From Chloroflexota bacterium (GTDB taxonomy: Bacteria > Chloroflexota > Anaerolineae > Anaerolineales > VGOW01), in NCBI GenBank assembly GCA_016197225.1, contig JACPWC010000009.1, forward strand, positions 357-64,356: a stretch of 64,000 bases of DNA, given 5' to 3'. The notes beneath the pieces are model-generated. The model was not told where the DNA came from, did not search any database, and saw only the letters and a program-made list of their open reading frames with translations. Made by a program: the position numbers and the translations under genes. The stretch's first letter is position 1, and each line of letters opens with the position of its first letter. Of the stretch, positions 337 through 61,645 are shown in pieces.

Positions 337-3690
<3,354 letters not shown>

Positions 3691-3707: not shown

Positions 3708-3772
3708 GACGACAGACGATGGACGATAGACGAAAGCACTTTTCCGTCGTCTATCGTCTATCGTCTGTCGTC
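3708..3772. repeat. Heptamer-repeat hairpin (GACGACA GACGATG GACGATA GACGAAA / inverted CGTCGTC TATCGTC TATCGTC TGTCGTC), about 25-bp stem
   Basis: Near-perfect inverted repeat read directly. It fills the spacer between the upstream membrane-protein gene (its stop at 3771-3773 overlaps the right arm) and the gyrB start (3690). Possible terminator or 5'UTR structure. Confidence 0.7.
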
Positions 3773-7440: not shown

Positions 7441-7507
7441 AAAAGTCAGGCGGCACTTTAGCAGAGTTTGGAGAGGGGTCAAGGTGGATGAATGGCTAGC
7501 AAGATGT

Positions 7508-7942
7508 GTTCAAGTGAGCCTGTAAGCCGCTTTCTGTGCCTCTTGCGAGGCGGCGATCATCTCTCTGGGCCGGACATTACTGCCCGGCTCGTGCGGTCTA
7601 CCCGAGGCTCAAACGCTGCGAGCAACAGCTCGCCTCTGCTCGATCTTGCTCCCGGCGGGGGTTGCCTGGCCGCTCGCGTTGCCGCGAGCGCCGGTGGTCT
7701 CTTACACCACCGTTTCACCCTCACCTGGATTGCTGATTTTTGATTGTTGATTTCTGATTGCCGCTTTAGGCGAACAATCATCATTCAGAAATCATCAATC
7801 AGCAATCCAGGCACTACGCTTCTCTGTGGCCCTCTTCCAGCAGGTTGCCCCGCTCCGGGCGTTACCCGGCGCCGTGCTCTGTGGAGAGCGGACTTTCCTC
7901 GACGCGCCCGAAGACGCGCCGCGATCACCCGGCTCACTTGAA
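7508..7942 (-). ncRNA. rnpB: RNase P RNA, bacterial type A, with a greatly extended P12
   Basis: The reverse complement contains GAGGAAAGUCCGC (7889-7900 on +), GGUAACGCC, ACAGAGAA, GGGUGAAACGGUG, GUAAGAGACCACC and ACAGAAAGCGGCUUACAG. The P1 pairing CAAGUGAGCC/GGCUCACUUG defines the ends to within a few nt. Confidence 0.9.
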
Positions 7943-9472: not shown

Positions 9473-12400
9473 ATGCGCCGCTTCCTTCCAATTTTAGTTG
9501 TCTCGCTGTTCGCGCTCTTCACCGCCCAGCCGCTCTTCGTCCGCCAGCTCACCTGTTCCGACGACAACCCATTTGCGCTCGCCAGAGCCGTGAACCTGGA
9601 ACAGCTCATCCGCGACGGGCACATTTTTAGCCGCTGGTCGCCGCACATGGCGCACGGTTACGGCTTCCCGTTCTACAACTACTACGGCGCGCTTAGTTCC
9701 TTTGCCCTAGTTGCCATACACAGTCTCGGCTTCATCTATCCAACGGCGCTACACATCCTCTTTGGCTTGTGCATCTGGGGGGCCGGTTTAGGCGCCTACG
9801 CTTTTGCCCGCGAGTGGTGGGGCGAGGCGGGCGGCGTGGTTGCCGCCGTGCTTTACCTCACCGCGCCCTACTTAGCCTTCGACATCCTCTTTCGCGGCGC
9901 GCTGGCCGAAACCCTGGCCCTCGTCTGGCTTCCCCTCATCCTCTTCACCCTCCATCGCGCCCTCAACTCACCGACGCATGCTTCACATTCGTCGTTTGGG
10001 GTTTGGAATTGGGGGTTTGGGACTTGGGGTTTTTTAGCCAGCCTGTCCTTCGCCGCATTGATGTTCACCCACAACACCTCCTCGCTCGCCGCCCTCCCGC
10101 TCGTCACCGGTTACGTGGCCCTGATGGCGTTCCTTCATCGCGACTGGCGCAAACTTTTTCAGGGCGGCCTCATCGTCGTCATCGGCCTCGCTCTCTCAGC
10201 CCGCTTCTGGCTTCCGGCCCTGGCCGAAATCAACCTGGTGCAAACGGATCGCCTTCTCGTCCCGCCCATTTTCACCTACTACACCAACTACCTCAGCCTG
10301 CGCGAACTCTTTGCCCCGCCTGCAGCCATCGATCCTCTACTCATCAATCCCTCACCGGCCAAAGCCCTCGGCCTCGTGGCAATTGTGTTGGCCCTCGTTG
10401 GCCTCGTCGCCGTCGTCTGGCAAGCAGCGCGCAATCGCCAACAAAGGACAGCCTTGTCGTTTGTCGTTTGGACTTTGCTCTGTCTCGCTGTTTATATCTT
10501 CCTCACCCTGCCCCTCTCACAACCAATTTGGGATCATGTTCCCCTCGTTCCCTTCATTCAGTTTCCCTGGCGCTTTCTTGGCCCGGCGGCGTTGTGCGCC
10601 GCCCTGCTCGCCGGCGGCGGCGGCCGCTGGCTCACCAGGCATCAATGGACTGCCGCCGCCGCCATCGCCCTCATCGCGGCGCTCGGCCACCTCTCGTGGT
10701 GGTATCCGCGCTATTGTGAGCCGTTCAAAGAGATCAGTCTGGGAAGCACGTTGCAGTACGAATACGACACGTTCACCATTGGCACGACCGCCAAAGGCGA
10801 ATATCTTCCTCGAACTGTCACACTCTTGCCCGACGACGACTCAATCGCCGAAGCCCTCATGCGCGGTGAACAGCCGCAATACCTCACCGGGCTACCCGCC
10901 GCCTCGACCCTCACCCTCCTCGATCCCGACCCGCTCAACTACGAAGCAACGGTCACTGTCGCCAGGTTGACTCAAGTGACGTTCAACCAGTTCTACTTCC
11001 CCGGCTGGCGAGCCACGCTCGACGGCCAGCAGACTGACATCATCCTCACGCCCGGCACCGGCCTGATCACTGTGCTTATTCCGGCTGGCACGCACACCTT
11101 GCGCTTTCATTTCGGCACTACGCCGGTTCGCGCGGCGGGTGACACGATTTCCATCATCGCCATCGTGGCTGTTATCGCATATTTCGTATTGCGTATTCCA
11201 TTGAAGCAACTTCCTCAACGCTCTCCTGCTCCTCCGCTCCTCAGCGCCCCTGCCGATTTCGGGGTTTGGATTTTGGGGCTTGGGATTTTGCTTTTGCTGA
11301 TCATCCGCCCGCTCGTCATTGACCGAACTTCAAACCCGCTCCGCCGTTCGGTCTTCGACGGCCAAACACTCAGCCTCGGCCAGCCCTTGAACCTCAACCT
11401 GGCGGGCGGCCTCAACGTCCTTTCGACCGAATTTCCTTCTTCGGTTGCCTCGGGTTCGCAGTTCGACGCAATGCTTTATCTCACCACTCGCGTTCCAACG
11501 CCGCCCGACTTTCGCCCGCGTTTCGATCTCATCTCTGGCGATGGCTCGCTGATCTGGAACAGCGGCAAGGATGCCTTGCCGCCGCGCTGGCACCGCGAGC
11601 CGCCAGACACGCAATACTGGCCGGTCGGGCAATACGCGCAGTGGGCGCGGCGCGAAACGGTTCTGCCCGGCACGCCGCCCGGCGAGTATCAACTCACGGC
11701 TACCATCTTTGATCGCCAGACTCTTGCGCCCGACAGCGTGATTGATACTGACGGCAACCCCGTCTCGCCGATCATTTCGCTGGGCGTCGTTCAGGTCACG
11801 CGCCCGCCGACGCCCAGCGAAGTGAGCGACCTCAACATTCAATATCTGGCGGATTACGATTTCGGCCCGATCACGTTGCTGGGTTATAACCAGGATCGAA
11901 GTGAGGCGCGACCGGGCGAGGCCGTCCTCATCACGCTTTTCCTGCGCGCCGACGAAACGATGCCTGACCTCAAGTTCAACCTGCTCGATCCATCTTATCC
12001 AACCTCACAATGGCAGGTCGGCGATGTATGGCGCTTTCAGACGCTGGCCCGCATTCCGGCCTCTGCCGAGTCCGGGTCGTTTCAATTTTCGTTGTCTCTG
12101 CTCGACACCGCCGAGTCGATCAGTTTACAGGCCATTCAACTGACTGCGCCCGAGCGCGCCTTTGTTGCGCCGGAAGTTGCTCAACCGGCCAAAATTCAGT
12201 TTGGGGATGTCATTGAGTTTGCTGGTTACACTCTGCGGGCTTCTTCGGAAGCGACGACGATTGATTTGCTGTGGCATGCCCTGGCCACGCCCGGTTTGGA
12301 TTTGATTGCTTTTGTGCATTTTGAAGATGCGGCGGGGCGCGTCCTGGCTCAGTCGGACGCGGTGCCCGTCAACTGGAGCCGCCCCACGACCGGCTGGCTC

Positions 12401-12637: not shown

Positions 12638-12904
12638 GTGGCAAATACTGCATCCGCTCAAAAACGCATCCGTTCAAATGCTCGTAAGGCCAAACACAAT
12701 CAGGTTCGCAAGTCGCGCGTTCGCACCTCGGTGCGCGCCGCTCGCGAGGGCCTGAGCGACTCTGCCGAGGCCAAGAAGGCCGTGATGGCCGCTGTGAGTG
12801 AACTGGATCGCGCCGCGGCGAAGGGCGTTATTCACAAGAACAATGCCGCCCGCCGCAAAGGCCGCTTGATGAAGAAGCTGGCGGCCCTCGAAGCAAAGAA
12901 GTAA
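12638..12904 (+). CDS. rpsT: 30S ribosomal protein S20
   Basis: VANTASAQKRIRSNARKAKHNQ...AAKGVIHKNNAARRKGRL. GTG start 7 nt after AAGGAG. Confidence 0.93.
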   Translation: MANTASAQKRIRSNARKAKHNQVRKSRVRTSVRAAREGLSDSAEAKKAVMAAVSELDRAAAKGVIHKNNAARRKGRLMKKLAALEAKK

Positions 12905-12923
12905 TTCCAACCGTTTCGGCCCC

Positions 12924-12960
12924 AAAAGCCATCGCTTGCAAAAGGCGGTGGCTTTTTTGT
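12924..12960 (+). terminator. Rho-independent terminator of rpsT
   Basis: GCCATCGC-loop-GCGGTGGC followed by TTTTTTGTTTTT. Confidence 0.75.
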
Positions 12961-12981
12961 TTTTAGCGTTAAATTGAGCTA

Positions 12982-13010
12982 TTGACTAGAACATAAGTTC
13001 TATGATAAAT
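12982..13010 (+). promoter_or_regulatory. Sigma-70-like promoter (TTGACT-17-ATAAAT) containing a LexA/Cheo-type box AGAACATAAGTTCT
   Basis: TTGACT at 12982-12987, palindrome TAGAAC-ATAA-GTTCTA at 12987-13002, ATAAAT at 13005-13010. About 105 nt upstream of the FtsK-like gene. Confidence 0.45.
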
Positions 13011-13118
13011 TACTCACGTCTTCCCTGCTCTTATCAACTGCCCCGGAGCGTGTGACCCGTTTTTTGTGTCCGCTCTGCTCGCGCCCGGAATCCATTTCAC
13101 ACCCAACGGATTTCGGCT

Positions 13119-14180
13119 ATGGCAACCAGGCTCTCTCACGAAATGATGGAATTTCAATCTGACCGGATCGAGTCGGTGCTGGCCTCGCATCGCATTCCGG
13201 TTCGAGTGCATGGCGGCGTCATCGCCCCGCGCTGGATTCGATTTCATTTCAGCGCCGCGCCCTCGGCCCGCGTCAGCAAAATTCGCAACCTGTCGGAGGA
13301 GATCGCGCTGGCGCTGGGCGCGGCCTCGGCCCGCATCGCCCGCGACGGCGACATGCTGGCCGTCGAGATTCCCCGCCCGGACGCCGAGGCGGTGCGGCTG
13401 TTGCCGCTGCTGCGAGACTTGCTTCGCACTTCCATGCTTCCGCCCGTCTCGGCCTGCATCGGCCTGACCGACACCGGCCAACCGCTCCTGCTCCGCCTAC
13501 CTTCGCCCGACGTGACTCACATTCTGGTGGCGGGCGCAACCGGCTCGGGCAAAACCGAGTTGATGCGGGCCATGATTCTAAGTTTGGTTGCCGCCAACCG
13601 GCAGGCCAAAGTTCAACTGGTGTTGATCGATCCCAAGTCGCGCGGCTTTGGGCCGCTGGGGAGATTGCCTCACCTCATTGCCCCGCCCGCCGCGAACGTT
13701 GAGGCCGCCTCGGCCCTCCTCACCCGCCTCGCCGCCGAAATGGATCGTCGGGACGCCGACAACGCCACCCTGCCCCGCATCGTCATCGTGGTGGATGAAG
13801 TGATTGATTTGCTGATGACGGGCGGCAAGCCGGTGGAGGCCGCCCTCACCCGGCTGGCCCAGCGCGGGCGCGAGGCCGGCATCCATCTCATCCTCGGCGC
13901 GCAAAAACCGTCGTCCACTTTGCTTGGCCCGCAACTCAAAGCCAACCTGCCGGTGCGGCTGGTAGGCCGCGTGGGCAGTGTCGAAGACGCCCGCGTCGCC
14001 ACTGGCATCGCCGGGAGCGGCGCCGAGAAGCTCACCGGGCGCGGCGACTTCATTGCCGTGGCCTGCGGCCAGACGATGCGTTTTCAAGTTGCCTACGTCT
14101 CACCTGCCGACCTGACTCATTTTTACGCCGCGGCCCGCGACCGCAACAACTTGATTCGCTTTGAGCAAAGCTTCGTATGA
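13119..14180 (+). CDS. FtsK/SpoIIIE-family DNA translocase motor (alpha+beta domains only; no N-terminal membrane domain, no gamma domain)
   Basis: Walker A VAGATGSGKTE, LIDPKSRGF, PHLIAPP, Walker B RIVIVVDEVIDL, GIHLILGAQKPS, TGRGDF. The N-terminus resembles the FtsK alpha domain (VSKIRNLSEEIALALGA). Confidence 0.85.
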   Translation: MATRLSHEMMEFQSDRIESVLASHRIPVRVHGGVIAPRWIRFHFSAAPSARVSKIRNLSEEIALALGAASARIARDGDMLAVEIPRPDAEAVRLLPLLRDLLRTSMLPPVSACIGLTDTGQPLLLRLPSPDVTHILVAGATGSGKTELMRAMILSLVAANRQAKVQLVLIDPKSRGFGPLGRLPHLIAPPAANVEAASALLTRLAAEMDRRDADNATLPRIVIVVDEVIDLLMTGGKPVEAALTRLAQRGREAGIHLILGAQKPSSTLLGPQLKANLPVRLVGRVGSVEDARVATGIAGSGAEKLTGRGDFIAVACGQTMRFQVAYVSPADLTHFYAAARDRNNLIRFEQSFV

Positions 14181-19045: not shown

Positions 19046-19108
19046 TGGAGATTAGAGAATTGGAGATTAGAGATTGGAGGTCGGAGGTGGCTTTCGATCT
19101 CTAATCTC
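19046..19108. repeat. Heptamer repeats (GGAGATT/AGAGATT type) with a 12-bp perfect hairpin core GAGATTAGAGAT/ATCTCTAATCTC in the RR-HK spacer
   Basis: Read directly. The right arm overlaps the RR stop codon (19101-19103). Confidence 0.65.
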
Positions 19109-19793: not shown

Positions 19794-19859
19794 ACCGCAA
19801 AGACACAAAGAACGCAAAGGTTGTTTTTGTTTTCCCCGCGCTCTCTGTGTCTCTGTGGT
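19794..19859. repeat. CAAAG/CTCTG-type repeat hairpin (ACCGCAAAGACACAAAGAACGC... / ...GCGCTCTCTGTGTCTCTGTGGT)
   Basis: About 22-position stem between the Zn-ribbon gene stop (19867) and the RR start (19781). Related arms occur at 38330-38401 and about 24100-24130. Confidence 0.6.
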
Positions 19860-19866
19860 AAGTTGA

Positions 19867-20250
19867 TCAGACTTTCTCGCCGCAATACGGGCAGGCCTTC
19901 CAGCCCGGTTGAAGCGGCTTGCCGCAGTGAGCACAACCCGTTGTCACCCCCGGCGGCTGAGGCGCGTTGGAGGCGGCCACGCTTTTCACCAGCCACACTA
20001 CGCCCAGCGCCACCAGGCCGACGAACAACAAAGGCACAACCAACATGCCGAAGCCAAAGAACGGCATTCCAAACCCGCCCATCATGCCTCTACCTCCAAA
20101 CATGTGCCCCGGCCCCATCATGCCGTAGCCGTTCCATGCCGATTGCGGCGCGAAGAACGGGTACACAGTCGAAAAGACAAAAGCGAGCACGATCAGCACT
20201 ACGCTGATCCCGATTATCCATTGAAGTCCTTTACTCATTTTAGCCTCCAT
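19867..20250 (-). CDS. Small membrane protein with Met/Gly-rich loop and C-terminal zinc ribbon
   Basis: Two TM segments, GMMGPGHMFGGRGMMGGFGMPFFGFGM, and C-terminal CAHCGKPLQPGWKACPYCG. Confidence 0.7.
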   Translation of the reverse strand: MEAKMSKGLQWIIGISVVLIVLAFVFSTVYPFFAPQSAWNGYGMMGPGHMFGGRGMMGGFGMPFFGFGMLVVPLLFVGLVALGVVWLVKSVAASNAPQPPGVTTGCAHCGKPLQPGWKACPYCGEKV

Positions 20251-21583: not shown

Positions 21584-21622
21584 CACGCAAAACGCAAACG
21601 CGGCGCGTTTACGTTTTGCGTG
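21584..21622 (+). terminator. 19-bp hairpin built from ACGCAAA repeats downstream of the Rrf2 gene
   Basis: CACGCAAAACGCAAACGCG / CGCGTTTACGTTTTGCGTG (18 of 19 complementary), followed by ...CCTTTTGC. Confidence 0.5.
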
Positions 21623-38329: not shown

Positions 38330-38401
38330 ACCGCAAAGACGCAAAGAACACAAAGAAGAATAAAGAAAAGTTTTTCTTCGCGCCCTTCGCGCCTTCGCGG
38401 T
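38330..38401. repeat. CAAAG/CTTCGCG repeat hairpin filling the mvk-ipk spacer
   Basis: 26-nt arms ACCGCAAAGACGCAAAGAACACAAAG / CTTCGCGCCCTTCGCGCCTTCGCGGT. On the + strand this gives 19 Watson-Crick pairs plus 7 A:C oppositions. Confidence 0.65.
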
Positions 38402-38407
38402 GAAAAA

Positions 38408-39214
38408 ATGTTGAACCAGCTTTACTTCCTCAAACTCGGCGGCTCGCTCATCACCGACAAAAGCCGCGAACAAACCGTGCTACCCAAGGTGCTGGCCCGG
38501 CTGGCCGACGAGATCGCAACCGCCCTCGCAACCCGCCCCGACTTGCGACTCGTCATCGGCCACGGCTCCGGCTCGTTCGGCCACGCTGAGGCCAAAAAGC
38601 ACGGCACACGGCAGGGCGTGCGAACGCCTGAGCAGTGGCGCGCCTTCGCCAACGTGGCCCACGTGGCCGCCAAGCTCAACCGGCACGTGCTGGATGCTCT
38701 GCGCGCGGCGGGCATCCCGGCCATCAACGCTCAACCCTCAGCCTCGGTCGTTTGCCGTGATGGAGCTATCGTCGAAATGGCGGCCGCCCCGATCCAACGT
38801 GCTTTGGATGGCGGCCTTGTTCCAGTGGTTTACGGCGACGTGGCGGTGGACGAAGCTCGCGGCGGCACCATCATCTCCACCGAAGACGAGTTTCGCTTTC
38901 TGGCGACACGCCTGCGCCCTGCCCCTTCGGAAATCTTGCTGGCCGGAATCGAGCGCGGCGTGCTGACAAGCTGGCCCGACGGCGAAGTGATCCCGCTCAT
39001 CACGCCGCAAAACATCGAGAGCCTGCGCCCCGCCCTGCGCGGCTCACACGCCGCCGACGTGACCGGCGGCATGGAGAGCAAAGTGCTGGAGATGCTGGCC
39101 CAGGCGCAAGCGATGCCAGGGCTGAGCATTTGCATTTTTTCGGGCGTGGAGGCGGGGGTGGTGAAGAAGGCGTTGTTAGGAGAGGGAGGGGTTGGAACGA
39201 TTATCAAGGCTTAA
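38408..39214 (+). CDS. ipk: Isopentenyl phosphate kinase (amino-acid-kinase fold)
   Basis: LKLGGSLITDK, GHGSGSFGH, and the C-terminal DVTGGM motif. Confidence 0.82.
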   Translation: MLNQLYFLKLGGSLITDKSREQTVLPKVLARLADEIATALATRPDLRLVIGHGSGSFGHAEAKKHGTRQGVRTPEQWRAFANVAHVAAKLNRHVLDALRAAGIPAINAQPSASVVCRDGAIVEMAAAPIQRALDGGLVPVVYGDVAVDEARGGTIISTEDEFRFLATRLRPAPSEILLAGIERGVLTSWPDGEVIPLITPQNIESLRPALRGSHAADVTGGMESKVLEMLAQAQAMPGLSICIFSGVEAGVVKKALLGEGGVGTIIKA

Positions 39215-39935
39215 CTATTATTTCAGATCGGATATCATCGAGTCTTGAAGACAATTCCATTCTTTTGAAGAATTCGTCAGCAAACCTAAAGCTTGAGGCT
39301 ACCGCCCACTTTGCACATCCATATGATAAACACTTATCTGGAAAGTACGGGGCTTTTTTAGCCGCCAAAGGATTGTGTTGGAATTTCTTTGCTTTTAGTT
39401 TCTTCTCCATTTTATGTGCTGGCGGATTTTGCTCTGGTGTCAAGCGACCTGGCTCAGCCCAAACCCACTCAGGCTTATAGTGAATCAATGCATTACGCAA
39501 CCCAATAAGATCTTTGACATCTTGGTATAAACGCATCCCTTTATCAAAGTGTGTCTTTCTTGCCAAGAGCAGGACTATTTGGAATTTATCCAAGGTATTA
39601 AACTGCTCGGAGAATTGCCACATGTTAGCCAAGAGTGTTGATGTATCAGGATCCATTTCCTTTACGAGCTTTATGCCATTAGTTTGGTCGTCGAGCGTAT
39701 CTGAGAACAATTCATTGATGGTAGCTTCAAGAAATGAGACTGCTGCAAAGATAGAGCCAGTTACATACGCTCTATGTTCTACATACAACTTTTGAAAGGC
39801 CTGGCCATCATAAGATTGCTCAATTTCGGCGGCCAATCTCGCAAATAGTTGGGCTGACTGAATATGTTGCTTTGAAAAATAAGTGCGCACCCTTACGGAG
39901 ATATATTCAGTGATATCTACTGGCTCATGAGTCAT
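39204..39935 (-). CDS. Stand-alone HEPN-like protein (RNxxxH motif), AT-rich insertion
   Basis: 243-aa ORF. LIGLRNALIHYK has R-N-x3-H at 39480-39497. Helical composition. ATGA overlap with the upstream epimerase gene and an 11-nt convergent overlap with ipk. Composition is clearly AT-richer than the flanks. Confidence 0.5.
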   Translation of the reverse strand: MTHEPVDITEYISVRVRTYFSKQHIQSAQLFARLAAEIEQSYDGQAFQKLYVEHRAYVTGSIFAAVSFLEATINELFSDTLDDQTNGIKLVKEMDPDTSTLLANMWQFSEQFNTLDKFQIVLLLARKTHFDKGMRLYQDVKDLIGLRNALIHYKPEWVWAEPGRLTPEQNPPAHKMEKKLKAKKFQHNPLAAKKAPYFPDKCLSYGCAKWAVASSFRFADEFFKRMELSSRLDDIRSEIIVKP

Positions 39936-40944: not shown

Positions 40945-41005
40945 GTTAGTGAACAGTGGACAGTGAATAGTAACGACTATTCACTGTCCACTGCTAACTG
41001 TTCAC
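40945..41005. repeat. Heptamer-repeat hairpin (AGTGAAC AGTGGAC AGTGAAT AGT / inverted), 18-bp perfect stem
   Basis: CAGTGGACAGTGAATAGT-AACG-ACTATTCACTGTCCACTG. Lies between the LCP gene stop (41010) and the epimerase start. Confidence 0.75.
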
Positions 41006-42212: not shown

Positions 42213-43639
42213 AAATATTTTTCGACCGCCCAGCCGCCGTTACGCATCACCTCAAGCGGAATCGAATCGCCGGGCTTGAAGACCAGCGTGTTGTGGCCGG
42301 TGAAAGCGTCAATCACGTCGCCCATCAAGTCGGCCAGAAAGACGGGCCGGTTCAGGGCGCGGGCGATGTCGAGCGGCGACACGTCATCGAGGCTGATGCC
42401 CTGCGGATGATCGAACATGACTCGCGGCAGGACGACAAACTCGCCGAGATCGCGATCGCTGAGTTGGTTGATGACATCCTTGCCCATCAACAGCCCGGCT
42501 ACGGTGATCGTCTCGCCCAGCCGGTCATTGATCACCGGGGACACCGCCAACGTCGTTCCCGCAATTTGGTCGAACTCCCTGGCCGACTTCGTCAGCACCG
42601 GCGCAAACAATGCGCCGCTTACCAGCGTCGCCCTCATCCCATTTTGGATTTTGGGATTTGGGATTTGGGATTTCAACTCTCTTTTCTCCCGCCGCCACGC
42701 ATTCAAAAACCCCCTCACCTGCCCCAGCCCGTTCTCTTCGAGCGCCAGCCCGTCGAGATTTTTAATTGGCGGCAGTGGGCGGCCAGTGACCAGATACCAC
42801 TCGTCGGTGGCGTGAACGAAATGCGCGCCAAACTTTTTGAGAAAGCGCGCCTGCCATTTTTCAACAGCGTCCAGCACATCGTTACACTCAGCAACAGTGT
42901 TCGGTCGGTGGCCGTACTTGTGATGTTTGGTGAGGCCGACCGGCGCTACGCTGACAGATTGAACCGTTGGATAAAGTTTGCCTAACTCACGAAGCGACTG
43001 CTCGAGGATCGAGCCGTCGTTGAGGCCGGGCGTGACCACGAGCTGGGTGTGACAGACGATGCCACGCTCACCCAGCCAGCGCAGTTGTGCCATCACGTCG
43101 GGCGCGGTTTTGTTGGCCAGGCAGGCTCGGCGAACTTCCAGGTTGGTGGCGTGTACCGAGACGTACAGCGGCGAGAGGCGTTGCTCTTCGAGTCGCGCCC
43201 AGTCGTGCTCACTCAGGTTGGTGAGGGTGACGAAGTGGCCGTAGAGAAACGAGTAGCGGTAGTCGTCGTCTTTGATGTAAAGGGTGCGCCTCATGCGCGG
43301 CGCGGTTTGCAGGACGAAGCAGAACGGGCACAGGTTGTTGCACCGGCGGATGTCTATGTCGAAGGTGGGGTGGGTGAATTCAATTCCAAGTGGCTGTTCT
43401 ATTTTTCGCGTGTTGCGTATTGCGTATTGCGTATCATCCCGCCGGTAGACGATTTCGACTTGGTCTTCGGCGGCGTAGAACTGCACGTCAATCACGTCTT
43501 CGACGGGGTGGCCGTTGACGGCCAGTACTTCGTCGCCGGGGCGCAGGCCGAGGTCGGCGGCGAGGGAGGCGGGTTCGACTTTCTGAATGAGGCCGGAGTA
43601 TTTGTAATTAGTTATTGGTAATTGGTTAGTGGCCGTCAC
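42209..43639 (-). CDS. PDZ domain + radical-SAM-like (CX3CX2C) + DUF512 protein
   Basis: PDZ GLRPGDEVLAVNGHPV, the cluster RRCNNLCPFCF, and a C-terminal DUF512-like region. N-terminal codons are repeat-derived, so the start is uncertain. Confidence 0.78.
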   Translation of the reverse strand: MTATNQLPITNYKYSGLIQKVEPASLAADLGLRPGDEVLAVNGHPVEDVIDVQFYAAEDQVEIVYRRDDTQYAIRNTRKIEQPLGIEFTHPTFDIDIRRCNNLCPFCFVLQTAPRMRRTLYIKDDDYRYSFLYGHFVTLTNLSEHDWARLEEQRLSPLYVSVHATNLEVRRACLANKTAPDVMAQLRWLGERGIVCHTQLVVTPGLNDGSILEQSLRELGKLYPTVQSVSVAPVGLTKHHKYGHRPNTVAECNDVLDAVEKWQARFLKKFGAHFVHATDEWYLVTGRPLPPIKNLDGLALEENGLGQVRGFLNAWRREKRELKSQIPNPKIQNGMRATLVSGALFAPVLTKSAREFDQIAGTTLAVSPVINDRLGETITVAGLLMGKDVINQLSDRDLGEFVVLPRVMFDHPQGISLDDVSPLDIARALNRPVFLADLMGDVIDAFTGHNTLVFKPGDSIPLEVMRNGGWAVEKYL

Positions 43640-44370
43640 TCGATGTACTCACTTGTAGCCTTCGACAGATCGCTATAAATCCCGCGCCGGTGATCAGGCA
43701 ACATGGCGGCCAGGCGATACATGGCCTCGTCGGTCATCTGGCGCAACGCTTCGCGGGGCAGGCGACCCGTGATCGGTTTGAAGCGGAAAGGCTTCCCCAG
43801 AGTCACGACGCCGCCGGGTTCAGACCAACGCTTCTTGCTGATCGTCGGAAACCCTTTCGTGCCCTCAATCGCCACCGGAATGATCGGCGCGCCGGACTTG
43901 TGGGCAAGGTAGGCAATGCCTTCTTTGGCCTGGCTGAGGGCGGGCTGGCGCGTGCCTTGCGGAGCCACCAAAATGATCTCGCCCGCCTTCAATACTGTCA
44001 GAGCCTGCATCAAGGCTTCGCGGTCGGCCTCGCCGCGCCGCACCGGGATCACTGCCCACAAACGCGGGAAGATGCCCCAGACCGGGTAATTGTAGACTTC
44101 GATTTTCGCCATCGGCACAATGTTGCGTGGCAGGTTGCCCAGCACCACAATCGGGTCAATGAAAGCGATGTGGTTGATCATGAGAATGGCCGGGCCGGCC
44201 GGCGGCAAGTTCTCCAGCCCTTCGATCCGGTCAAGCTTCGCCAGCCAGCGAAAGCCGATGTTGGTGATCAGCCAGCGCAGAACGCGACGCACCGGCTCGT
44301 GTTTCGCGTGGACATATTCTCGATTTTTGATTTTAGATTTTTGATTTTGGATTGCGACGTTCTCGGTCAT
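43636..44370 (-). CDS. 1-acyl-sn-glycerol-3-phosphate acyltransferase family (paralogue 1)
   Basis: HX4D NHIAFID, PQGTR, IIPVAIEG. ATGA overlaps at both ends. Confidence 0.85.
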   Translation of the reverse strand: MTENVAIQNQKSKIKNREYVHAKHEPVRRVLRWLITNIGFRWLAKLDRIEGLENLPPAGPAILMINHIAFIDPIVVLGNLPRNIVPMAKIEVYNYPVWGIFPRLWAVIPVRRGEADREALMQALTVLKAGEIILVAPQGTRQPALSQAKEGIAYLAHKSGAPIIPVAIEGTKGFPTISKKRWSEPGGVVTLGKPFRFKPITGRLPREALRQMTDEAMYRLAAMLPDHRRGIYSDLSKATSEYIE

Positions 44371-45661: not shown

Positions 45662-45727
45662 CAACAAACGACAAATAACAAACGACAAACGTCATACTTT
45701 GTCGTTTGACGGTTGACGGTTGACGGA
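45662..45727. repeat. Heptamer repeats ACGACAA/ATAACAA and TTGACGG x3 with an about 11-bp central hairpin
   Basis: Read directly. Spans the cmk stop (45692) and encodes the cmk C-terminal tail SVNRQPSNDKV. Confidence 0.65.
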
Positions 45728-46396: not shown

Positions 46397-46440
46397 GAGG
46401 GAGTTGGGAGTTGGGGGTTGGAGATTAGAGGATTAGAGAT
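46397..46440. repeat. Heptamer repeats (GGGAGTT x3, GAGATTA x3) filling the rluB-cmk spacer
   Basis: GAGGGAGTTGGGAGTTGGGGGTTGGAGATTAGAGGATTAGAGAT, read directly. Confidence 0.65.
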
Positions 46441-47186: not shown

Positions 47187-47193
47187 GTGGAAA

Positions 47194-47450
47194 TTAAAGA
47201 TGATCGTGAGGGTCTTCTACAACAAGCCCTTCAGCGCGGGCGGCGGCAAGCAGTTGCCGGTCAGATGAAACAAAAGCTAGCTGGACTGCCTGAGATTGGC
47301 ACACCTTGTTCACAGCCAGCCCGATGGCGAGTTGTATAGCATCATAAGCCTTGAGCGGGTATTGCTGAGTGAGATTTGCGGCATGCATCTGCCAGGCTCC
47401 GCAAAATAATATTTAACGAGGACGCTGGCATCAAAGAAATACTCAGCCAT
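47194..47450 (-). pseudogene. Decayed PIN-domain (VapC-like) toxin gene: N-terminal 21 codons and C-terminal 64 codons in different frames, middle missing
   Basis: ATG at 47448-47450 gives MAEYFFDASVLVKYYFAEPG (the typical PIN start). ORF 47194..47388 gives ...AYDAIQLA...FVSSDRQLLAAARAEGL (PIN C-terminus). The frames differ (62-nt offset) and about 45 codons are absent. Confidence 0.7.
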
Positions 47451-47453
47451 TGG

Positions 47454-47783
47454 TCAGCGACGATTCTCGATAATGATTTCAGAAACGGGCTTGTCCAGCT
47501 TAATTGCGCGCAATGCGGCGCGTATTCTTTGTTGCTCTTTCTTTGACCATTTTTCCCAGCGTTCAGCAGCCTGCAATTCTAATTGGGTTGGCTCGCGCAC
47601 TAGGCCAGCCGCAACCATAGCGGCTCTAATTCGTGCCCGCTCTGAAGTGAATGTGCCCGGTTTAATCTGATCTGATTTGATAAAACGATTAGGCGAGAAT
47701 AGCCAACGGAGTTTCTGAACTTCTTTCTGAGTCTGGCGAACCTGTTTGGCTAACTTGTTGACTTTTAGTTCAATCTCTGTCAT
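47454..47783 (-). CDS. Putative antitoxin partner of the decayed VapC
   Basis: 109-aa charged helical ORF ending ...KPVSEIIIENRR. Its stop is 3 nt before the PIN ATG. AT-rich like the toxin remnant. Confidence 0.45.
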   Translation of the reverse strand: MTEIELKVNKLAKQVRQTQKEVQKLRWLFSPNRFIKSDQIKPGTFTSERARIRAAMVAAGLVREPTQLELQAAERWEKWSKKEQQRIRAALRAIKLDKPVSEIIIENRR

Positions 47784-47802
47784 ATCGCACCTCTGGCGAA
47801 GA

Positions 47803-48444
47803 TTATAGCACTTGCCCGTCATCGCCCGTCGCGGTTAAGTTGACAACTGGCTGGGGTGAAGGCTCGGCTTCAGACACGGGGACGGCTTCCCCGGAGTCGG
47901 CGGGGGCGGGTTCGAGCGTCGTATCCACGTTCAGCGGCGGCAGTTGGTTGAGCGACGACAGTCCAAAATGTTGCAGGAAGGTCGAGGTCGTGCCGTAAAG
48001 AATCGGGCGGCCCGGCCCCTCGGTGCGGCCCACTTCTTCAATCAGCCCCTTGCTCAGCAGAGACTTGATGACGCCGTCGCAATTCACGCCGCGAATCGAT
48101 TCGAGTTGCGGGCGGGTGACAGGCTGCTGATAAGCCACGATGGCGAGCGTCTCCAAAGAAGGCTTGCTCAAATGTTGCGCCGACTCCAAACCGAGAAAGC
48201 GCTCGACTTCAGCCGCCACCGTCGGGGCGGTCGTCAACTGCACCCGATCCTTTGCGCGTTGCAGGCTGAGGCCGCGCGAGGCATAGGAGGATTCAAGTTC
48301 GGCCAGGGCGTCCTCGATCTGGCGCGGTTGAACTTCAAGTGCGGCGGCCAGTTGAGAAATCTGCGTTGGGCCGTCGGCGACAAAGAGCAGACTCTCCACC
48401 AGGGCCGGGAGCGGCAAAGTGGGCATGTTATAATTTTCACTCAA
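47803..48444 (-). CDS. scpB: Segregation and condensation protein B
   Basis: VESLLFVADGP..., LETLAIVAYQQPVTRPQLESIRGV, GRPILYGTT..FLQHFGL. Confidence 0.92.
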   Translation of the reverse strand: MSENYNMPTLPLPALVESLLFVADGPTQISQLAAALEVQPRQIEDALAELESSYASRGLSLQRAKDRVQLTTAPTVAAEVERFLGLESAQHLSKPSLETLAIVAYQQPVTRPQLESIRGVNCDGVIKSLLSKGLIEEVGRTEGPGRPILYGTTSTFLQHFGLSSLNQLPPLNVDTTLEPAPADSGEAVPVSEAEPSPQPVVNLTATGDDGQVL

Positions 48445-50050: not shown

Positions 50051-50129
50051 TTGACAAGATGAAGGGATGACAGGATGAGCTTTACCGAAAGATCACCTTG
50101 TCACCCTGTCATCTTGTCACCTTGTCAGG
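50051..50129. repeat. 7/8-nt repeat hairpin (GATGAAG GGATGAC AGGATGA / TCACCTTG TCACCCTG TCATCTTG TCACCTTG) upstream of the aminotransferase
   Basis: Read directly. The right arm abuts or overlaps the SD AGGAG (about 50127) of the gene starting at 50137. Confidence 0.6.
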
Positions 50130-59394: not shown

Positions 59395-59542
59395 GAGGAT
59401 CGGTTTCCAAACGTGAACTTCTTTGCGGGGTCTTTCACCTCTGCAAAGAAGGGCTTAGACTATCAACTTGAGTTAGTTTATATACGGAGGGGCGTAGCAA
59501 GCTACGCCCCAGGCTGAGTAATGTGATTTTGCGCCAGACCGA

Positions 59543-61384
59543 TCAGGGTGTTCTAAAGCTACTCACTGCCGACCACTGGCTGACCTGCGCCGTGCCCCCA
59601 TTGATATTTACGGCTCGCACCCGCCAGTGGTAGAGCGTGAGCGGGGTCAGATCCGTTTCAACCATGTACGCCGACCGGGGAGTCACCCCACCCTGCCCGC
59701 GCCCCAGAAGAACGCTAAAATTAATGTCTTTGGAAATTTGAACTTCGTAATAGGTGGCGGCCGGGGACGAGTCACCCCAGTCCAGTGTCGGCTTCAGCGA
59801 TGTCGCGTTGGCGTTGTTGGCGGGCGAAATCAGCATCGGCACGCCCGGCGGGTTGGCGCTGTAGAAGTAGCGGGTGCGCGACCAGGCGCCGGGTCTGCCG
59901 CCGGCGTTGCCTCGCACGCGCCAGTACAGAATAGTATTGCGCGGCAGATCGGCGGTCGGGGTGTAAGCCGACACCGAGACGTTTATATTCAACACCAACA
60001 TGGTGAAGCCGGGGTTGGTAGAGAGTTGGAAAGTGTATGAGGTGAGCGACGGGCTGGTGATGTTGGCCCAGTCGAAGAGCGGGCGCGTGTTGGGCGGCGT
60101 GTTGCCGCTGGACGGGAAATTCATGGTGGCCGCCGGTAGTTGCGTGGGCGTGGGCGACGGGCCGGGCGTATTGGTAGGCGTGTTGGTGGGCGTATTAGTT
60201 GCCGTCGGCGTGTTGGTGGGTGGCGACGTGTTGGTAGGTGTGCTGGTCGGCGTGTTTGTTGGGGTGTTAGTGAATGTGCTTGAAGGTGTGTGAGTTGGGG
60301 TTGCGACAACGTCGTTCAACGACACCGAGTCGACGCGGGGTGAGATGGTGGAATCAGTGGTCGAGAGAATCAGTTTGTACTTGAGATAGCGATGCAGTTG
60401 GCCGCCGAAGGAAACGCCGCTCGTGGCATTAGTAAAAGCGCCAAAGGCAAGGCCGTCGTCTGAAGTGCTCACCTGTACGGTAACACCCGTGTTGGCGGGT
60501 TTGTTTTCAACCCAGCTAATTGTGTCCCAAACATTGCCGGTTTGAGCATCCAAAACACAACTAACAAATTCGCCGGTGAGCTTGTAAGTAGGCGTAACCT
60601 GGATGTTGTCTACTTTCAGGTCAACTGTGCTGTTATTAGAAATATAAGCGAGAAAATTCTCCCCATTAACACCGCCATGCAGAACGTTGAAATCAATTTT
60701 ATAAGCACCATCCACGTAAAAAGTAATCACATCATCAGTCGCATCGAATTGCGCCCATTCAATTCGGTAACGATGCGGGCCATCAATTGTGCCTAGCAAG
60801 ACAAACTGCTCAGAGCCGCTATTGTTGGCCCGGGCATATAATTTCCCGTCATTGAGACCTGTTGCCGGGTTCCTGGTGCTGACAATATAGTAGCGGTTGG
60901 TGCCAAAATCGTCGCGGGCAAAGCCAATATGTTGAAAAGCCCCATTGCCAAACTCGGCGGTAAATTCCATGACCGCGTAGGTATATGTTGTGGTTGAGCG
61001 TAAAAATGCTTGATCATTGCCCGCGATGGTCAAAATGCTATTAGCGATACCAGGCGTAGTATATGCCCCGCCTGCCCAAAGCAAAGCATCCCAGTTGGTA
61101 GCATTAAGTGACGAGCCGGGGAAATCATCAGCAAAATTGGCGGCGAGGGTGACGGTGCCGCCTGTGCCGTCGGTGGCATCAATGTCGGTGATGTGAGCGG
61201 TGTTCGTGTCTACGCAACCTGTGAAGTCGGCGCGGGTGGTGTGATTGATCGGGAGGGCCATGAAGGGCCGGGCCACCGGGCGGTGGCCAAAGGCGGCTAA
61301 CACAGGCCGCCAGATGCCTGACATGAGAATGACAATGCTAGTGATGGCAATGAGTTTCCAGGGGGATTTGTAGTTAGTGTGCAT
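59543..61384 (-). CDS. Secreted protein: ConA-like lectin/glucanase-type N-terminal domain, Pro/Thr linker, shared C-terminal module
   Basis: N-terminal anchor. DDFPGSSLNATNWD...RYRIEWAQFDATDDVITFYVDG suggests a LamG/ConA-like fold. Same C-terminal module as its neighbours. Confidence 0.7.
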   Translation of the reverse strand: MHTNYKSPWKLIAITSIVILMSGIWRPVLAAFGHRPVARPFMALPINHTTRADFTGCVDTNTAHITDIDATDGTGGTVTLAANFADDFPGSSLNATNWDALLWAGGAYTTPGIANSILTIAGNDQAFLRSTTTYTYAVMEFTAEFGNGAFQHIGFARDDFGTNRYYIVSTRNPATGLNDGKLYARANNSGSEQFVLLGTIDGPHRYRIEWAQFDATDDVITFYVDGAYKIDFNVLHGGVNGENFLAYISNNSTVDLKVDNIQVTPTYKLTGEFVSCVLDAQTGNVWDTISWVENKPANTGVTVQVSTSDDGLAFGAFTNATSGVSFGGQLHRYLKYKLILSTTDSTISPRVDSVSLNDVVATPTHTPSSTFTNTPTNTPTSTPTNTSPPTNTPTATNTPTNTPTNTPGPSPTPTQLPAATMNFPSSGNTPPNTRPLFDWANITSPSLTSYTFQLSTNPGFTMLVLNINVSVSAYTPTADLPRNTILYWRVRGNAGGRPGAWSRTRYFYSANPPGVPMLISPANNANATSLKPTLDWGDSSPAATYYEVQISKDINFSVLLGRGQGGVTPRSAYMVETDLTPLTLYHWRVRAVNINGGTAQVSQWSAVSSFRTP

Positions 61385-61578
61385 AGCTCTCAGCGTTCGG
61401 CCTCGGAAAGACCAGGAATGTTAGTGGCATGCGGCAACGGAGAATGAACCGTACCACTTTAACAACTGAGAGTCAGGTTAACTCCAAACAGCCAATGATT
61501 AGTAAAAAAAGGGTGAGGAATGGCCTGTCGCTAGCAGAATTCAACCTGATTCTGATAGGAAATAGGTCACTGAAAACG

Positions 61579-61611
61579 AGACCGACGCGGTCTTGAAGAC
61601 CGCGTCGGTCT
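61579..61611 (-). terminator. Rho-independent terminator of the 61646..63970 gene
   Basis: 16-nt perfect palindrome AGACCGACGCGGTCTT/AAGACCGCGTCGGTCT, followed on the minus strand by CTCGTTTTC. Confidence 0.65.
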
Positions 61612-61645
61612 GGCCTGGAAAGAACTTATCTGGAGACTATATCTT

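Follow-up and report, generated by a model that had tools for sequence, protein, structure and literature searches.

In this study, we observed that the genome of an uncultured groundwater Chloroflexota bacterium carries short tandem arrays of degenerate heptanucleotides, and the reading that we favour, at a probability of roughly 0.55, is that slippage and fold-back copying generate these arrays in place, where they are then retained as intercistronic RNA stems comparable to REP. The arrays are non-random in sequence and in placement, they gain or lose whole units where they stand, and their hairpins persist across relatives. From these patterns we infer the slippage and template-switch mechanism, as well as any function at the RNA level.

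The sequence analysed, called the window here, is the whole stretch of 64,000 nt from position 357 to 64,356 of the forward strand of contig JACPWC010000009.1 (GCA_016197225.1). Its host belongs to GTDB Anaerolineae; Anaerolineales; VGOW01, and its nearest relatives were found among Chloroflexota MAGs that carry the labels Chloroflexi, Anaerolineae or Caldilineae. The window was compared with about 0.55 Mb of related loci on metagenome contigs, which bear L-numbers below. Since orthologous arrays are present in independent JGI, ENA, NCBI and Logan assemblies, the arrays are not assembly artefacts. The window sequence was matched in three DNA runs, with assembled contigs in each, and alignment of one run gave a source contig identical to the window together with fragments of unrelated organisms; the search of sequencing runs found no RNA run carrying window sequence.

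With TRF, 18 period-7 rows and 6 period-14 rows were obtained from the window, against means of 1.73 and 0.47 rows in 30 dinucleotide-preserving shuffles, which bears out, at about tenfold for period 7, the heptamer excess that an earlier note on this DNA had put forward. Period 8 gave 6 rows against 1.67 in the shuffles, and periods 6, 9 and 12 were likewise raised in the window, the source of these being coding repeats. The earlier note had listed 14 loci, to which two hairpins (19794-19859 and 38330-38401) and one array of 2.4 units (10454-10470) are added here:

3708-3772, minus strand: type locus, a 4+4 GACGAnn heptamer hairpin in the spacer between a DUF7847-like gene and gyrB.
7727-7808, minus strand: heptamer-built extension of helix P12, 82 nt, inside rnpB (7507-7940), with units UGAUUGn and AAUCAnn.
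9992-10036, plus strand: G/T-rich heptamer array, translated as the loop SSFGVWNWGFGTWGF of a 1022-aa membrane protein.
10454-10470, plus strand: TTGTCGT array of 2.4 units within the gene of the same 1022-aa membrane protein.
11255-11290, plus strand: G/T-rich heptamer array in the same 1022-aa membrane protein gene, translated as DFGVWILGLGIL.
19046-19108, minus strand: GAGATTA/TAATCTC arrays of period 7 that fill the entire 57-nt spacer between a response-regulator and a histidine-kinase gene.
19794-19859, minus strand: ACC-(CRCRRAGN)x3 ... GGT hairpin between a zinc-ribbon ORF (19867-20250) and a response-regulator gene, 75.4 bits.
21584-21622, plus strand: plain hairpin of 19 bp in the rrf2/ald spacer, z -4.2.
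38330-38401, no strand assigned: second copy of the ACC-(CRCRRAGN)x3 hairpin, between two plus-strand genes.
40945-41005, minus strand: CAGTGAA-type heptamer hairpin of period 7 in the lytR-cpsA-psr/epimerase spacer, z -5.7.
42638-42670, minus strand: AAATCCC array, translated in a variable linker of a radical-SAM/DUF512 protein (SQIPNPKIQNG).
43397-43438, minus strand: AATACGC array of period 7, translated where the PDZ domain of the radical-SAM/DUF512 protein ends.
43600-43636, minus strand: CAATTAC-type array forming codons 2-13 of the DUF512 gene, with a GTGA start/stop overlap.
44323-44352, minus strand: AAAAATC array that supplies codons 7-16 to the third PlsC-like gene, with an ATGA overlap with the upstream stop.
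45662-45727, minus strand: (A)AACGAC-type heptamer hairpin at the cmk/plsC1 junction.
46397-46440, minus strand: two abutting arrays of period 7, TAATCTC then CCCAACT, making up the whole 43-nt rluB/cmk spacer.
50051-50129, plus strand: 8-mer hairpin (TGACAAGR/TCACCYTG) in the spacer between a ROK kinase and a class-III aminotransferase gene, z -6.8.

Periodicity was assessed for each locus or arm by a lag-autocorrelation test. Twelve of the 14 listed loci had their best lag at 7, with p ≤ 0.001 for most of them (p = 0.0005 at 3708, 0.02 at 9992, and 0.01 at 11255, for which TRF gave a period of 15), and the locus at 50051 had its best lag at 8 (p ≤ 0.0025). The locus at 21584, which holds about two ACGCAAA units, was non-periodic (p = 0.16 and 0.28), and its membership of the heptamer-array set is doubtful. 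The inverted partner that had been described as frequent for these arrays is present at seven of the 14 loci (3708, 7727, 19046, 21584, 40945, 45662 and 50051), the other seven being single arrays. Similarly, the statement that each locus has a unit of its own is only partly right: about 13 different units occur in the 64 kb, but three pairs of loci have an identical unit, against 0.30 pairs expected for the 64-kb window (p = 0.0014).

The distribution of the arrays within the window is strongly uneven. The expected enrichment in spacers was found, with 46.4 array bases per kb of intergenic sequence versus 4.27 per kb of coding sequence, and all eight intergenic arrays lie, as read from the gene layout, between co-directional genes 33-86 nt apart. 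Arrays occupy 8 of the 15 co-directional spacers of 25-100 nt and none of the 21 other spacers (p = 2e-4), a restriction to short spacers that is partly circular, as an array forms most of its own spacer. With respect to orientation, arrays were counted at 8 of 37 co-directional junctions, compared with 0 of 18 convergent or divergent ones (p = 0.03). No arrays were found in the remaining intergenic DNA of about 4.7 kb, which consists of long, divergent and convergent spacers and represents the majority of the non-coding sequence. The intergenic arrays of the relatives were at co-directional junctions in every case, and in all eight intergenic hairpins of the window the A-rich arm is the 5' one, which gives them a single polarity. 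This placement in short co-directional spacers goes beyond what neutral slippage covers. In the operon at 39-47 kb, the description of arrays in almost every short spacer applies to the rluB/cmk, cmk/plsC1 and lytR/epimerase spacers; four other loci listed there are coding.

Most array hairpins start at the upstream stop codon or within 7 nt past it. At the type locus, where four GACGAnn units stand opposite four inverted ones as had been reported, the stem on the transcribed (minus) strand has 27 pairs (-45.5 kcal/mol, z = -8.4, 200 shuffles); unit 1 includes the TGA stop of the DUF7847-like gene, and the SD of gyrB (GGAG; ATG at 3690) is unpaired and immediately 3' of the stem. A comparable fit was noticed at 40945, with the epimerase SD (GAGGTGA) 3' of the stem and its ATG at about 40923, and at 50051, where the last unit itself provides the SD (AGGAGA) for the aminotransferase ATG at 50137. 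At 45662, the 5' (left) arm codes the last 11 residues of Cmk, the cmk stop codon is in the loop, and the 3' arm stops 3 nt short of the ATG of plsC1 (45658), which has no SD. The abutting arrays at 46397 contain no G, have an MFE of 0 on the mRNA, include a TAA stop within unit 1, and are also followed by a start without SD. At 19046, the response-regulator TAG stop is within a unit and the histidine-kinase ATG is at 19043; the sense strand forms a 12-bp stem only (z -3.1) and the antisense strand a 21-bp stem with 5 G.U pairs (z -6.2). For six hairpins the two strands fold equally well, and for those at 19046 and 38330 the strand antisense to the neighbouring genes folds much better, a pattern that fits poorly with simple selection at the mRNA level.

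Six of the 14 listed loci are within coding sequence, in protein linkers or N-termini, and a seventh, 45662, codes the Cmk tail with one half. At the position matching 9992, the membrane-protein ortholog of L045 harbors a comparable TTGGnGn array, and the TTGTCGT unit of the short array at 10454 is identical to a unit of the 45662 hairpin. The array in the radical-SAM/DUF512 linker has an ortholog in L011, and the same linker in L006 contains AGTGGAA and ACATCCG arrays of independent origin; the array that closes the PDZ domain leaves the length unchanged compared with homologs. Of the array at 44323, L011, L046 and L047 keep a conserved form, and L048 and L049 a degenerate one.

One array lies in the RNase P RNA gene. 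The rnpB gene gave a full-length match to RF00010 (256.9 bits), the insert falls in P12, and the helix built of heptamers has a z of -9.8. The comparison for this gene is with L040, the contigs L041-L045 being without rnpB; in L040 the core is near-identical, P12 is a short stem of 6 bp and the heptamer helix is absent; the length variation of rnpB is caused by an array.

Gain and loss of units at orthologous spacers, which the earlier note had proposed to look for, were detected as whole-unit differences across the window, L001, L011, L013 and L046-L049. Among the eight related contigs, the junctions displayed whole-unit gain or loss, the disappearance of one arm, a switch to another unit family, capture by an ORF, and a seed of two units. 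This seed (GACGAAG GACGATA) is in the 17-nt spacer of the gyrB junction of L043, which forms no hairpin. At rluB/cmk, arrays of the inverse-complement type were observed in L011, L046 and L047, and the number of TTTGAGA units in L046 is that of L011 plus one; at lytR/epimerase, L011 has the hairpin of the window with two further units in the 3' arm. The plsC3/duf512 junction of L046 (4410-4510) carries a full GTAATTG/CAATTAC hairpin (z -4.3), and the window array at 43600 is the surviving 3' arm of such a junction hairpin, serving as DUF512 codons. In L048, L049 and L011, the TGA stop is where the units of this junction start, and array units in general frequently start at, or include, the upstream stop codon.

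The hairpins at two junctions are kept in several genomes. At cmk/plsC1 a hairpin was found in five (the window, L046, L047, L048 and L011; z -2.2 to -6.0), and at rok/at3 in four (the window, L011, L013 and L001; z -6.8 in the window, with -7.9, -4.1 and -1.4 among the relatives), with diverged units between flanks that are 67-87% (rok) and 86-90% (at3) identical in the three relatives. Across these four to five genomes the arm sequences shift and complementarity is retained; covariation is weak, as RNAalifold reported only 1-3 compensatory pairs for the orthologous hairpins, on repeat-arm alignments that are ambiguous. Array-free junctions also exist, at gyrB in L043, at rluB/cmk in L001 and L013, and at cmk/plsC in L049, so that no array is essential.

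The hairpins at 19794 and 38330 are a family distinct from the 14 heptamer loci, which is widely dispersed and also present in viral contigs. Close copies were noticed at other junctions in L001, L006 and L044, and (CACAGAGN)x3 was detected in 89 IMG/VR stretches, compared with 13 for a permuted control, with shared ACC/GGT ends. The 38330 hairpin folds into 28 bp with 7 G.U pairs on the minus strand (z -7.8) and gives z -3.6 on the plus strand, and the true ATG of the response-regulator gene beside the 19794 hairpin is at 19780. This dispersed 8-mer family and the recurrence of units at unrelated loci indicate that copy-and-paste spread exists in these genomes. Near 19794 and 38330 no small nuclease gene could be recognised, and the AT-rich gene at 39204-39935 had no Pfam match.

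In the explanation that we favour, the starting point would be a local sequence, often a heptamer that holds or adjoins the upstream stop codon. Direct repeats would then be generated by replication slippage, and the inverted arm by fold-back or template-switch copying. Such arrays would survive where extra sequence is tolerated, namely in the short spacers of co-transcribed genes, in flexible protein linkers and termini, and in P12 of RNase P RNA, and those in spacers would persist mostly as hairpins that span from the stop codon to just ahead of the next RBS or start. On the polycistronic mRNA, these may act as REP-type stems that form barriers to 3' decay, and some of them may be coupling devices; at cmk/plsC1, where the loop holds the stop and the stem has the following start at its base, upstream translation would be needed to open the downstream start. 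The earlier note had suggested a dedicated generating mechanism or a factor that reads the 7-nt periodicity, and our data lend no support to either: the whole-unit differences, the units anchored at stop codons and the two-unit GACGAnn seed indicate that ordinary slippage and fold-back template switching suffice, and the window's heptamer units are no more frequent in viral contigs than permuted controls.

The arrays could instead be pure mutational debris, functionless products of a lineage bias to slippage and palindromes of 7-8 nt, with a distribution that only marks where selection spares them. This is a possibility that we take seriously and yet consider the poorer account; their occurrence wherever extra sequence is tolerated, be it in spacers, in linkers or termini of proteins, or in rnpB P12, the six unit families found at one junction among seven genomes, the tight array-free junctions of some relatives, the folding of most hairpins without strand preference, and the strongly unequal array density (nearly none in 63 kb of the L043-L045 regions versus 3-9 per 10 kb in the cmk-operon loci) are all in its favour, but it does not sit well with some 4.7 kb of other intergenic DNA free of any array, with arms at rok/at3 and cmk/plsC1 that change yet stay complementary, or with the single polarity of eight out of eight intergenic hairpins. 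We regard it as unlikely that the hairpins are mobile elements like REP or MITE, that is, copies of a small palindrome that a transposase or nuclease, whether RAYT-like or not, places at the ends of genes, with the repeat units internal to the element. The 13-mer search of 0.5 Mb (the window and relatives) recovered only orthologs and two or three short unit matches for the 14 loci; no conserved ends were seen in the heptamer hairpins; and orthologs differ in whole-unit steps, with a two-unit seed among them. The points that speak for mobility are the 19794/38330 copies at different junctions of three relatives, the viral excess of their repeat with the same ends, the recurrence of three heptamer units in the window, and the extragenic-but-transcribed position, which is that of REP elements. 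A heptamer vocabulary spread by phages was rejected for GAGATTA and AAACGAC, as three-unit runs of these had 11 and 6 counts in viral contigs against 12 and 25 for their permuted controls.

It is improbable that the arrays serve as binding sites for a dedicated protein or RNP reading the 7-nt register, such as an OB-fold or cold-shock-type protein with one monomer per heptamer, since the diversity of the units is too great for recognition by sequence, half of the arrays are tied up by base pairing in stems, both ORFs and a ribozyme helix tolerate arrays, the analysis turned up no candidate gene, and many unrelated bacteria are known to have the same period excess (Rehm et al. 2015, PMC4692102). 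The idea does draw on a period strongly fixed at 7 while the unit sequence varies, on arrays that adjoin start codons, at times in place of an SD, and on the binding of heptamer direct repeats by Bacillus CspB, one protein per heptamer (MacGregor 2015, PMC4679880). The reading with the smallest likelihood of all, in which the array hairpins would divide the operons as intrinsic terminators or attenuators, was rejected: although the stems are stable, mostly begin at the upstream stop or no more than 7 nt past it, and in one case (the inner 45662 hairpin, followed by its own T-rich arm) were flagged as terminator-like, they are AT-rich, lack a U-tail, and are located inside tight operons directly ahead of SD or start. 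That was the one array hairpin flagged, the window totals are at shuffle level (16 vs 17.2 and 18 vs 20.7), and the convergent spacers have no array hairpins but do have a canonical terminator (12924-12956).

A bolder form of the idea of maintained stems is that the tandem-arm hairpins are actively written and maintained intercistronic elements of the clade, with a hairpin-directed copying or nuclease system that makes both arms and resizes them in steps of 7-8 nt and stems that work as length-tunable devices for translational coupling and stability of mRNA segments. We find this doubtful; under it, the A-rich-arm-5' polarity and the exact fit from stop to start would be designed features, and the copying system might have a link to the agent behind the spread of the ACC-(CRCRRAGN)x3 hairpins.

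The comparative series of one operon in eight genomes, with Cmk identities of 75-100%, displays arrays at the seed stage, arrays lengthened by whole units, arrays mirrored to form hairpins, and arrays that were halved, exchanged for others or taken up by genes, with the array-poor stretches of related genomes, for example those of L043 and L002, as a contrast set. It makes testable whether the stems tune expression within operons, and which difference in replication or repair yields the 7-nt step. On the practical side, gene callers will misplace starts and stops at array junctions, and several of the "N-terminal extensions" and protein linkers in the window are repeat-derived.

With reference to known systems, heptanucleotide repeats of heterocystous cyanobacteria, named STRR, were reportedly described by Mazel and colleagues in 1990, and a 1997 work of Vioque is said, by its title, to place STRR heptamers inside the cyanobacterial RNase P RNA gene. 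STRR consist of a few fixed units in high copy number. The likeness to STRR drawn in the earlier note is apt, as the arrays here also have tandem 7-nt units, are mainly non-coding with intergenic enrichment, and include one array that builds a P12 helix in the RNase P RNA gene. Unlike STRR, they reside in a member of the Chloroflexota and not in a heterocyst-forming cyanobacterium, they are short (3-5 units) with many different units in the 64 kb, about half have an inverted partner, and several are translated. REP/BIME sequences (REPIN) of Proteobacteria are imperfect palindromes, extragenic but transcribed, that plausibly form mRNA-stabilising stems. The present hairpins resemble them as imperfect palindromes outside genes and within predicted transcription units, but the 14 heptamer loci have no shared consensus or conserved ends and change by whole units; a REP-like multi-copy consensus with conserved ends is confined to the 8-mer ACC...GGT family (19794, 38330). 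MITEs, for their part, have terminal inverted repeats with target-site duplications and occur as multiple dispersed copies; the copy number of the 14 heptamer loci is low in the 0.5 Mb examined.

Among other bacteria, GGGAATC repeats of Xanthomonas and GGGGA(C/T)T repeats of Nostoc PCC 7120 were studied by Rehm et al. (2015, PMC4692102), who credited the general excess of heptameric SSRs to a 2007 survey (their reference 33), proposed polymerase slippage as the origin, and noted that some inverted pairs could form stem-loops. Common to those repeats and ours are an intergenic heptamer excess and arrays at the same genes in related strains that vary widely in length and sequence. Those repeats are families of a single G-rich unit with G-quadruplex potential, whereas the units here are many and mostly AT-rich, the arrays are strongly confined to co-directional operon junctions, some are coding and one is in rnpB. 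The TAACTGA direct repeats of Beggiatoaceae, cyanobacteria and Bacteroidetes, for which a role in translational regulation was suggested (MacGregor 2015, PMC4679880), share with our arrays downstream genes that often have no SD, but they have one fixed unit and are almost only direct repeats, compared with diverse units and frequent inverted pairs here. Within the Chloroflexota, (GATAGRA)n heptamer satellites scattered in the genome of Chloroflexus aurantiacus were reported by Subirana and Messeguer (2019, PMC6749651); these are a single unit family in the class Chloroflexia, and the part of that report consulted here describes no hairpins, placement at operon junctions or coding copies. Our literature search found no paper linking heptanucleotide repeats with Anaerolineae-type Chloroflexota. 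The arrays display the excess, the intergenic enrichment and the variation among relatives that are the class features of over-represented bacterial heptameric SSRs, and they are a new example of these bacterial heptamer repeats, a class known since the cyanobacterial STRR.

The degenerate heptamer arrays reported by the earlier note are real, and since period 7 lies well above the shuffle level and nearly all listed loci are periodic, the observation stands. Tandem Repeats Finder returned 18 period-7 rows and 6 period-14 rows from the window, against means of 1.73 and 0.47 in dinucleotide-preserving shuffles (n = 30). Period 8 was mildly elevated (6 versus 1.67), and periods 6, 9 and 12 were likewise elevated, these being coding repeats, as expected. 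In a lag-autocorrelation test on each locus or arm (maximum over lags 4-10, 2000 shuffles), lag 7 was best at 12 of the 14 listed loci, with p <= 0.001 for most and weaker values at 9992 (p = 0.02) and 11255 (p = 0.01). The claim of a 7-nt, occasionally 8-nt, period thus holds for these loci and for 50051, where lag 8 was best; it fails at 21584, where no periodicity was found over these lags (p = 0.16 and 0.28) and which is an ordinary 19-bp hairpin rather than a heptamer array. At the type locus, the units GACGACA, GACGATG, GACGATA and GACGAAA are followed by a 13-nt loop and four inverted units, and the transcribed minus strand folds into a 27-pair stem (-45.5 kcal/mol, z = -8.4) that none of 200 shuffles equalled.

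Each array was examined in the frame of its neighbouring genes and then against homologs, which gave three classes:

3708, 19046, 40945, 45662, 46397 and 50051: intercistronic arrays, all but 46397 being hairpins
46397: the whole 43-nt rluB/cmk spacer, two abutting single arrays, free of G, predicted structure zero
45662: 5' arm forming the last 11 Cmk residues, stop codon in the loop, 3' arm stopping 3 nt short of the conserved MPFSQP start of the next gene, without a Shine-Dalgarno sequence
7727-7808: structural RNA array, an 82-nt helix P12 extension in a full-length class-A RNase P RNA (256.9 bits)
9992 and 11255: translated arrays in loops of a 1022-aa membrane protein
42638: translated array in a variable linker of a radical-SAM/DUF512 protein
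43397: translated array at the end of the PDZ domain of the radical-SAM/DUF512 protein
43600: translated array, first 12 codons of the radical-SAM/DUF512 protein
44323: translated array, codons 7-16 of the gene for a PlsC-like acyltransferase, its ATG overlapping the TGA of the gene upstream

An inverted partner was absent from all six translated arrays. The statement that nearly all short spacers of the operon at 39-47 kb hold arrays is half right, because all three real spacers are filled by arrays and the other four loci listed there are coding.

Several neighbouring features were also observed. The minus-strand gyrB (337-3690, 1117 aa) carries an intein (Pfam Intein_splicing) ahead of the Toprim domain; among relatives, gyrB bears an intein in one (L043; L numbers denote related contigs) and is intein-free (644 aa) in L045. 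An AT-rich 243-aa ORF (39204-39935, minus strand) overlaps the epimerase stop (ATGA) and has no Pfam match at E <= 0.1. The scpB-rluB gap (47187-47830) holds about 640 nt with small ORFs, one of 122 aa without a Pfam match, and is possibly an inserted small gene pair; the L001 spacer is about 28 nt and lacks that stretch. Three consecutive large minus-strand genes (56728-63970; 888, 613 and 774+ aa) have an Ig-like Rha78A_N-type domain in common, and each contains 12/24-nt coding tandem repeats (57324-57494, 60081-60196, 62412-62528), a repeat class different from the heptamers.

With genes modelled from long ORFs with codon-position GC bias and starts then corrected from homologs, the spacer enrichment raised by the earlier note was borne out, array bases amounting to 46.4 per kb of intergenic and 4.27 per kb of coding sequence in the window. 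Counting also an extra hairpin (19794-19859) between a zinc-ribbon ORF and the true response-regulator start, arrays occur in 8 of 15 co-directional spacers of 25-100 nt versus none of 21 other spacers of at least 25 nt (8 long co-directional, 6 convergent, 7 divergent; Fisher p = 2e-4), a length class that is partly circular because an array makes up most of its own spacer. Counted more cautiously, arrays occupy 8 of 37 co-directional junctions and none of the 18 that are convergent or divergent (p = 0.03). All intergenic arrays of the relatives likewise lie at co-directional junctions; outside genes, the arrays are confined to such junctions. As terminators the array hairpins were rejected: U-tails are lacking, and the one array sequence flagged was the inner portion of 45662. 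Terminator-like sites in the window overall equal the shuffle level in number. The convergent spacer at 12924-12956 holds a canonical bidirectional intrinsic terminator, a 14-bp stem between an A-run and a T-run; ordinary terminators, different from the array hairpins, are thus in use in this organism.

All statements on arrays are based on the window, which covers nearly all of a 64.8-kb groundwater-metagenome contig, and about 0.55 Mb of related loci. The nearest relatives of its cytidylate kinase (Cmk) are uncultured Chloroflexota labelled Chloroflexi, Anaerolineae or Caldilineae. Synteny of the aminotransferase-to-mevalonate-kinase region extends to L011 (Cmk 85% identical) and L001 (75%), and most or part of the region was present in L046 (86%), L047 (83%), L048 (79%), L013 (77%) and L049 (76%). 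Array density was 3-9 per 10 kb in cmk-operon loci with Cmk identity of at least 75% and mostly 0-2 per 10 kb below about 65%. Density is heterogeneous, arrays being nearly absent from three gyrB-murA loci (63 kb) of relatives.

The gain or loss of units that the earlier note proposed to look for in related spacers was found as whole-unit differences: at rluB/cmk, L046 exceeds L011 by one TTTGAGA unit, and at lytR/epimerase the 3' arm of the hairpin is two units longer in L011. The C-rich rluB/cmk array of the window is of the inverse-complement type to the G/T-rich one of L047, a pattern to be expected had each retained a different arm of one ancestral hairpin. At plsC3/duf512, L046 has a complete GTAATTG/CAATTAC hairpin (z = -4.3) and the window only the 3' arm, which forms the first DUF512 codons. 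Six unit families occur at this junction among seven genomes, and three among three at mvk/ipk; in the DUF512 linker that holds array 42638 in the window, independent arrays of AGTGGAA and ACATCCG occur in the distant L006. Other junctions keep their arms: the cmk/plsC1 hairpin was found in five genomes and the rok/aminotransferase 8-mer hairpin in four (z = -6.8, -7.9, -4.1 and -1.4), its arms passing from TGACAAGG-type to AGAAGGGG-type units between genomes, yet remaining complementary inside each. Arrays persist at particular junctions as complementary arms. Units at plsC3/duf512 open with the TGA stop (TGAACGC in L048, ATGACAA in L049, GACGAAA in L011), and at 3708, 19046 and 46397 the upstream stop codon lies inside the first unit. 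In L011, the closest relative, an additional 247-aa gene of unassigned family (12798-13541) stands between plsC3 and the DUF512 gene, with a GACGAAA array directly 5' of it that begins at the plsC3 stop codon. The type-locus spacer of L043 (MurA 90% and the N-terminal part of GyrB 91% identical) is only 17 nt, TGA-CGAAGGACGATAACTAA-ATG, equal to two GACGAnn units without a hairpin. The RNase P RNA of L040, whose phosphatase neighbouring rnpB is 80% identical, has a near-identical core, and its P12 is a 6-bp stem (GCCCCG...CGGGGC) versus the 82-nt heptamer helix of the window. These comparisons show that arrays can grow from a two-unit seed or shrink to one, and that they are able to lengthen an existing helix (P12) symmetrically.

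The hairpins also have a polarity, the A-rich arm being 5' of the T-rich one in all eight intergenic cases (3708-3772, 19046-19108, 19794-19859, 21584-21622, 38330-38401, 40945-41005, 45662-45727 and 50051-50129; two-sided binomial p ~0.008). For a palindrome this order is identical whichever strand is read; the rnpB P12 helix has the opposite one. The intergenic order may be due to stop codons that an A-rich first arm offers in several frames, by which the upstream ORF would end at once. Decay was one-sided in the 19046, 19794 and 38330 hairpins, where one arm changed only by transitions that retain G.U pairs on one strand. At 19046 and 38330 (5 and 7 wobbles) the strand in question runs antisense to the genes on either side, the sense and antisense folds being -14.6 versus -32.2 kcal/mol at 19046-19108 and -24.6 versus -43.5 kcal/mol at 38330-38401.

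The proposal that units are locus-specific was largely upheld: in a 13-mer search of 0.5 Mb, second copies lay almost exclusively at orthologous sites. It does not extend to three locus pairs of the window that share an identical unit (AAAAATC, AAACGAC and GAGATTA; expected 0.30, p = 0.0014). Viral contigs gave 11 matches to GAGATTA x3 and 6 to AAACGAC x3, versus 12 and 25 for permuted controls; given this and the orthology of second copies, the heptamer units cannot be regarded as a widely dispersed vocabulary. Outside the 14 listed loci there are 8-mer hairpins with ACC/GGT ends, the two of the window aligning end to end with those at other junctions in three related contigs, all at unrelated co-directional junctions:

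window 19794-19859: ACC/GGT 8-mer hairpin
window 38330-38401: ACC/GGT 8-mer hairpin
L001:12014-12079: ACC/GGT 8-mer hairpin
L006:12152-12219: ACC/GGT 8-mer hairpin
L044:14234-14302: ACC/GGT 8-mer hairpin

Their common form in four Chloroflexota genomes is ACC-(CRCRRAGN)x3, a loop, the inverse arm and GGT; 93% of cells are paired, with both-side changes at 5 pairs (reached by 29 of 500 shuffles). Exact matches to (CACAGAGN)x3, many of them forming inverted pairs, were counted in 89 IMG/VR stretches, versus 13 for a permuted control. The viral copies fit a covariance model built on the four Chloroflexota copies; the fit of the left arm follows by construction, that of the inverse arm and of the terminal ACC and GGT does not. 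The 8-mer hairpins form a genuinely dispersed family of REP- or MITE-like character.

The arrays are non-random, are altered in place by whole units and start at stop codons. In the most likely reading, replication slippage with a preferred 7-nt step would produce the direct repeats, and fold-back or quasi-palindrome template switching, an established class of replication error, would add the inverted arm and keep it matched. Slippage is cited in Rehm 2015 (PMC4692102) as the explanation of the general heptamer excess. For a dedicated factor behind the arrays, as suggested by the earlier note, no evidence was found in the window and about 0.55 Mb of related loci. Once formed, spacer stems on polycistronic mRNA may act like REP stems as decay barriers, and at cmk/plsC1-like sites they may be coupling devices opened by the terminating ribosome. 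We consider it rather unlikely that the arrays are neutral debris without function, and this reading stays a serious rival because relatives manage without arrays at the corresponding junctions.

Nearly all features of the window arrays have precedent. In heterocystous cyanobacteria, STRR repeats reportedly lie inside rnpB. Our literature search found no description of such arrays in Anaerolineae-type Chloroflexota, and the main value of the finding is the orthologous series, which documents the birth, change and death of arrays. A precedent in Chloroflexi is given by the heptamer satellites of Chloroflexus aurantiacus (PMC6749651). The TAACTGA repeats (PMC4679880) are likewise heptamers adjoining start codons in place of the Shine-Dalgarno sequence. 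Xanthomonas and Nostoc (PMC4692102) display an intergenic excess of heptamer SSRs, inverted pairs and strain-to-strain variation, as observed here.
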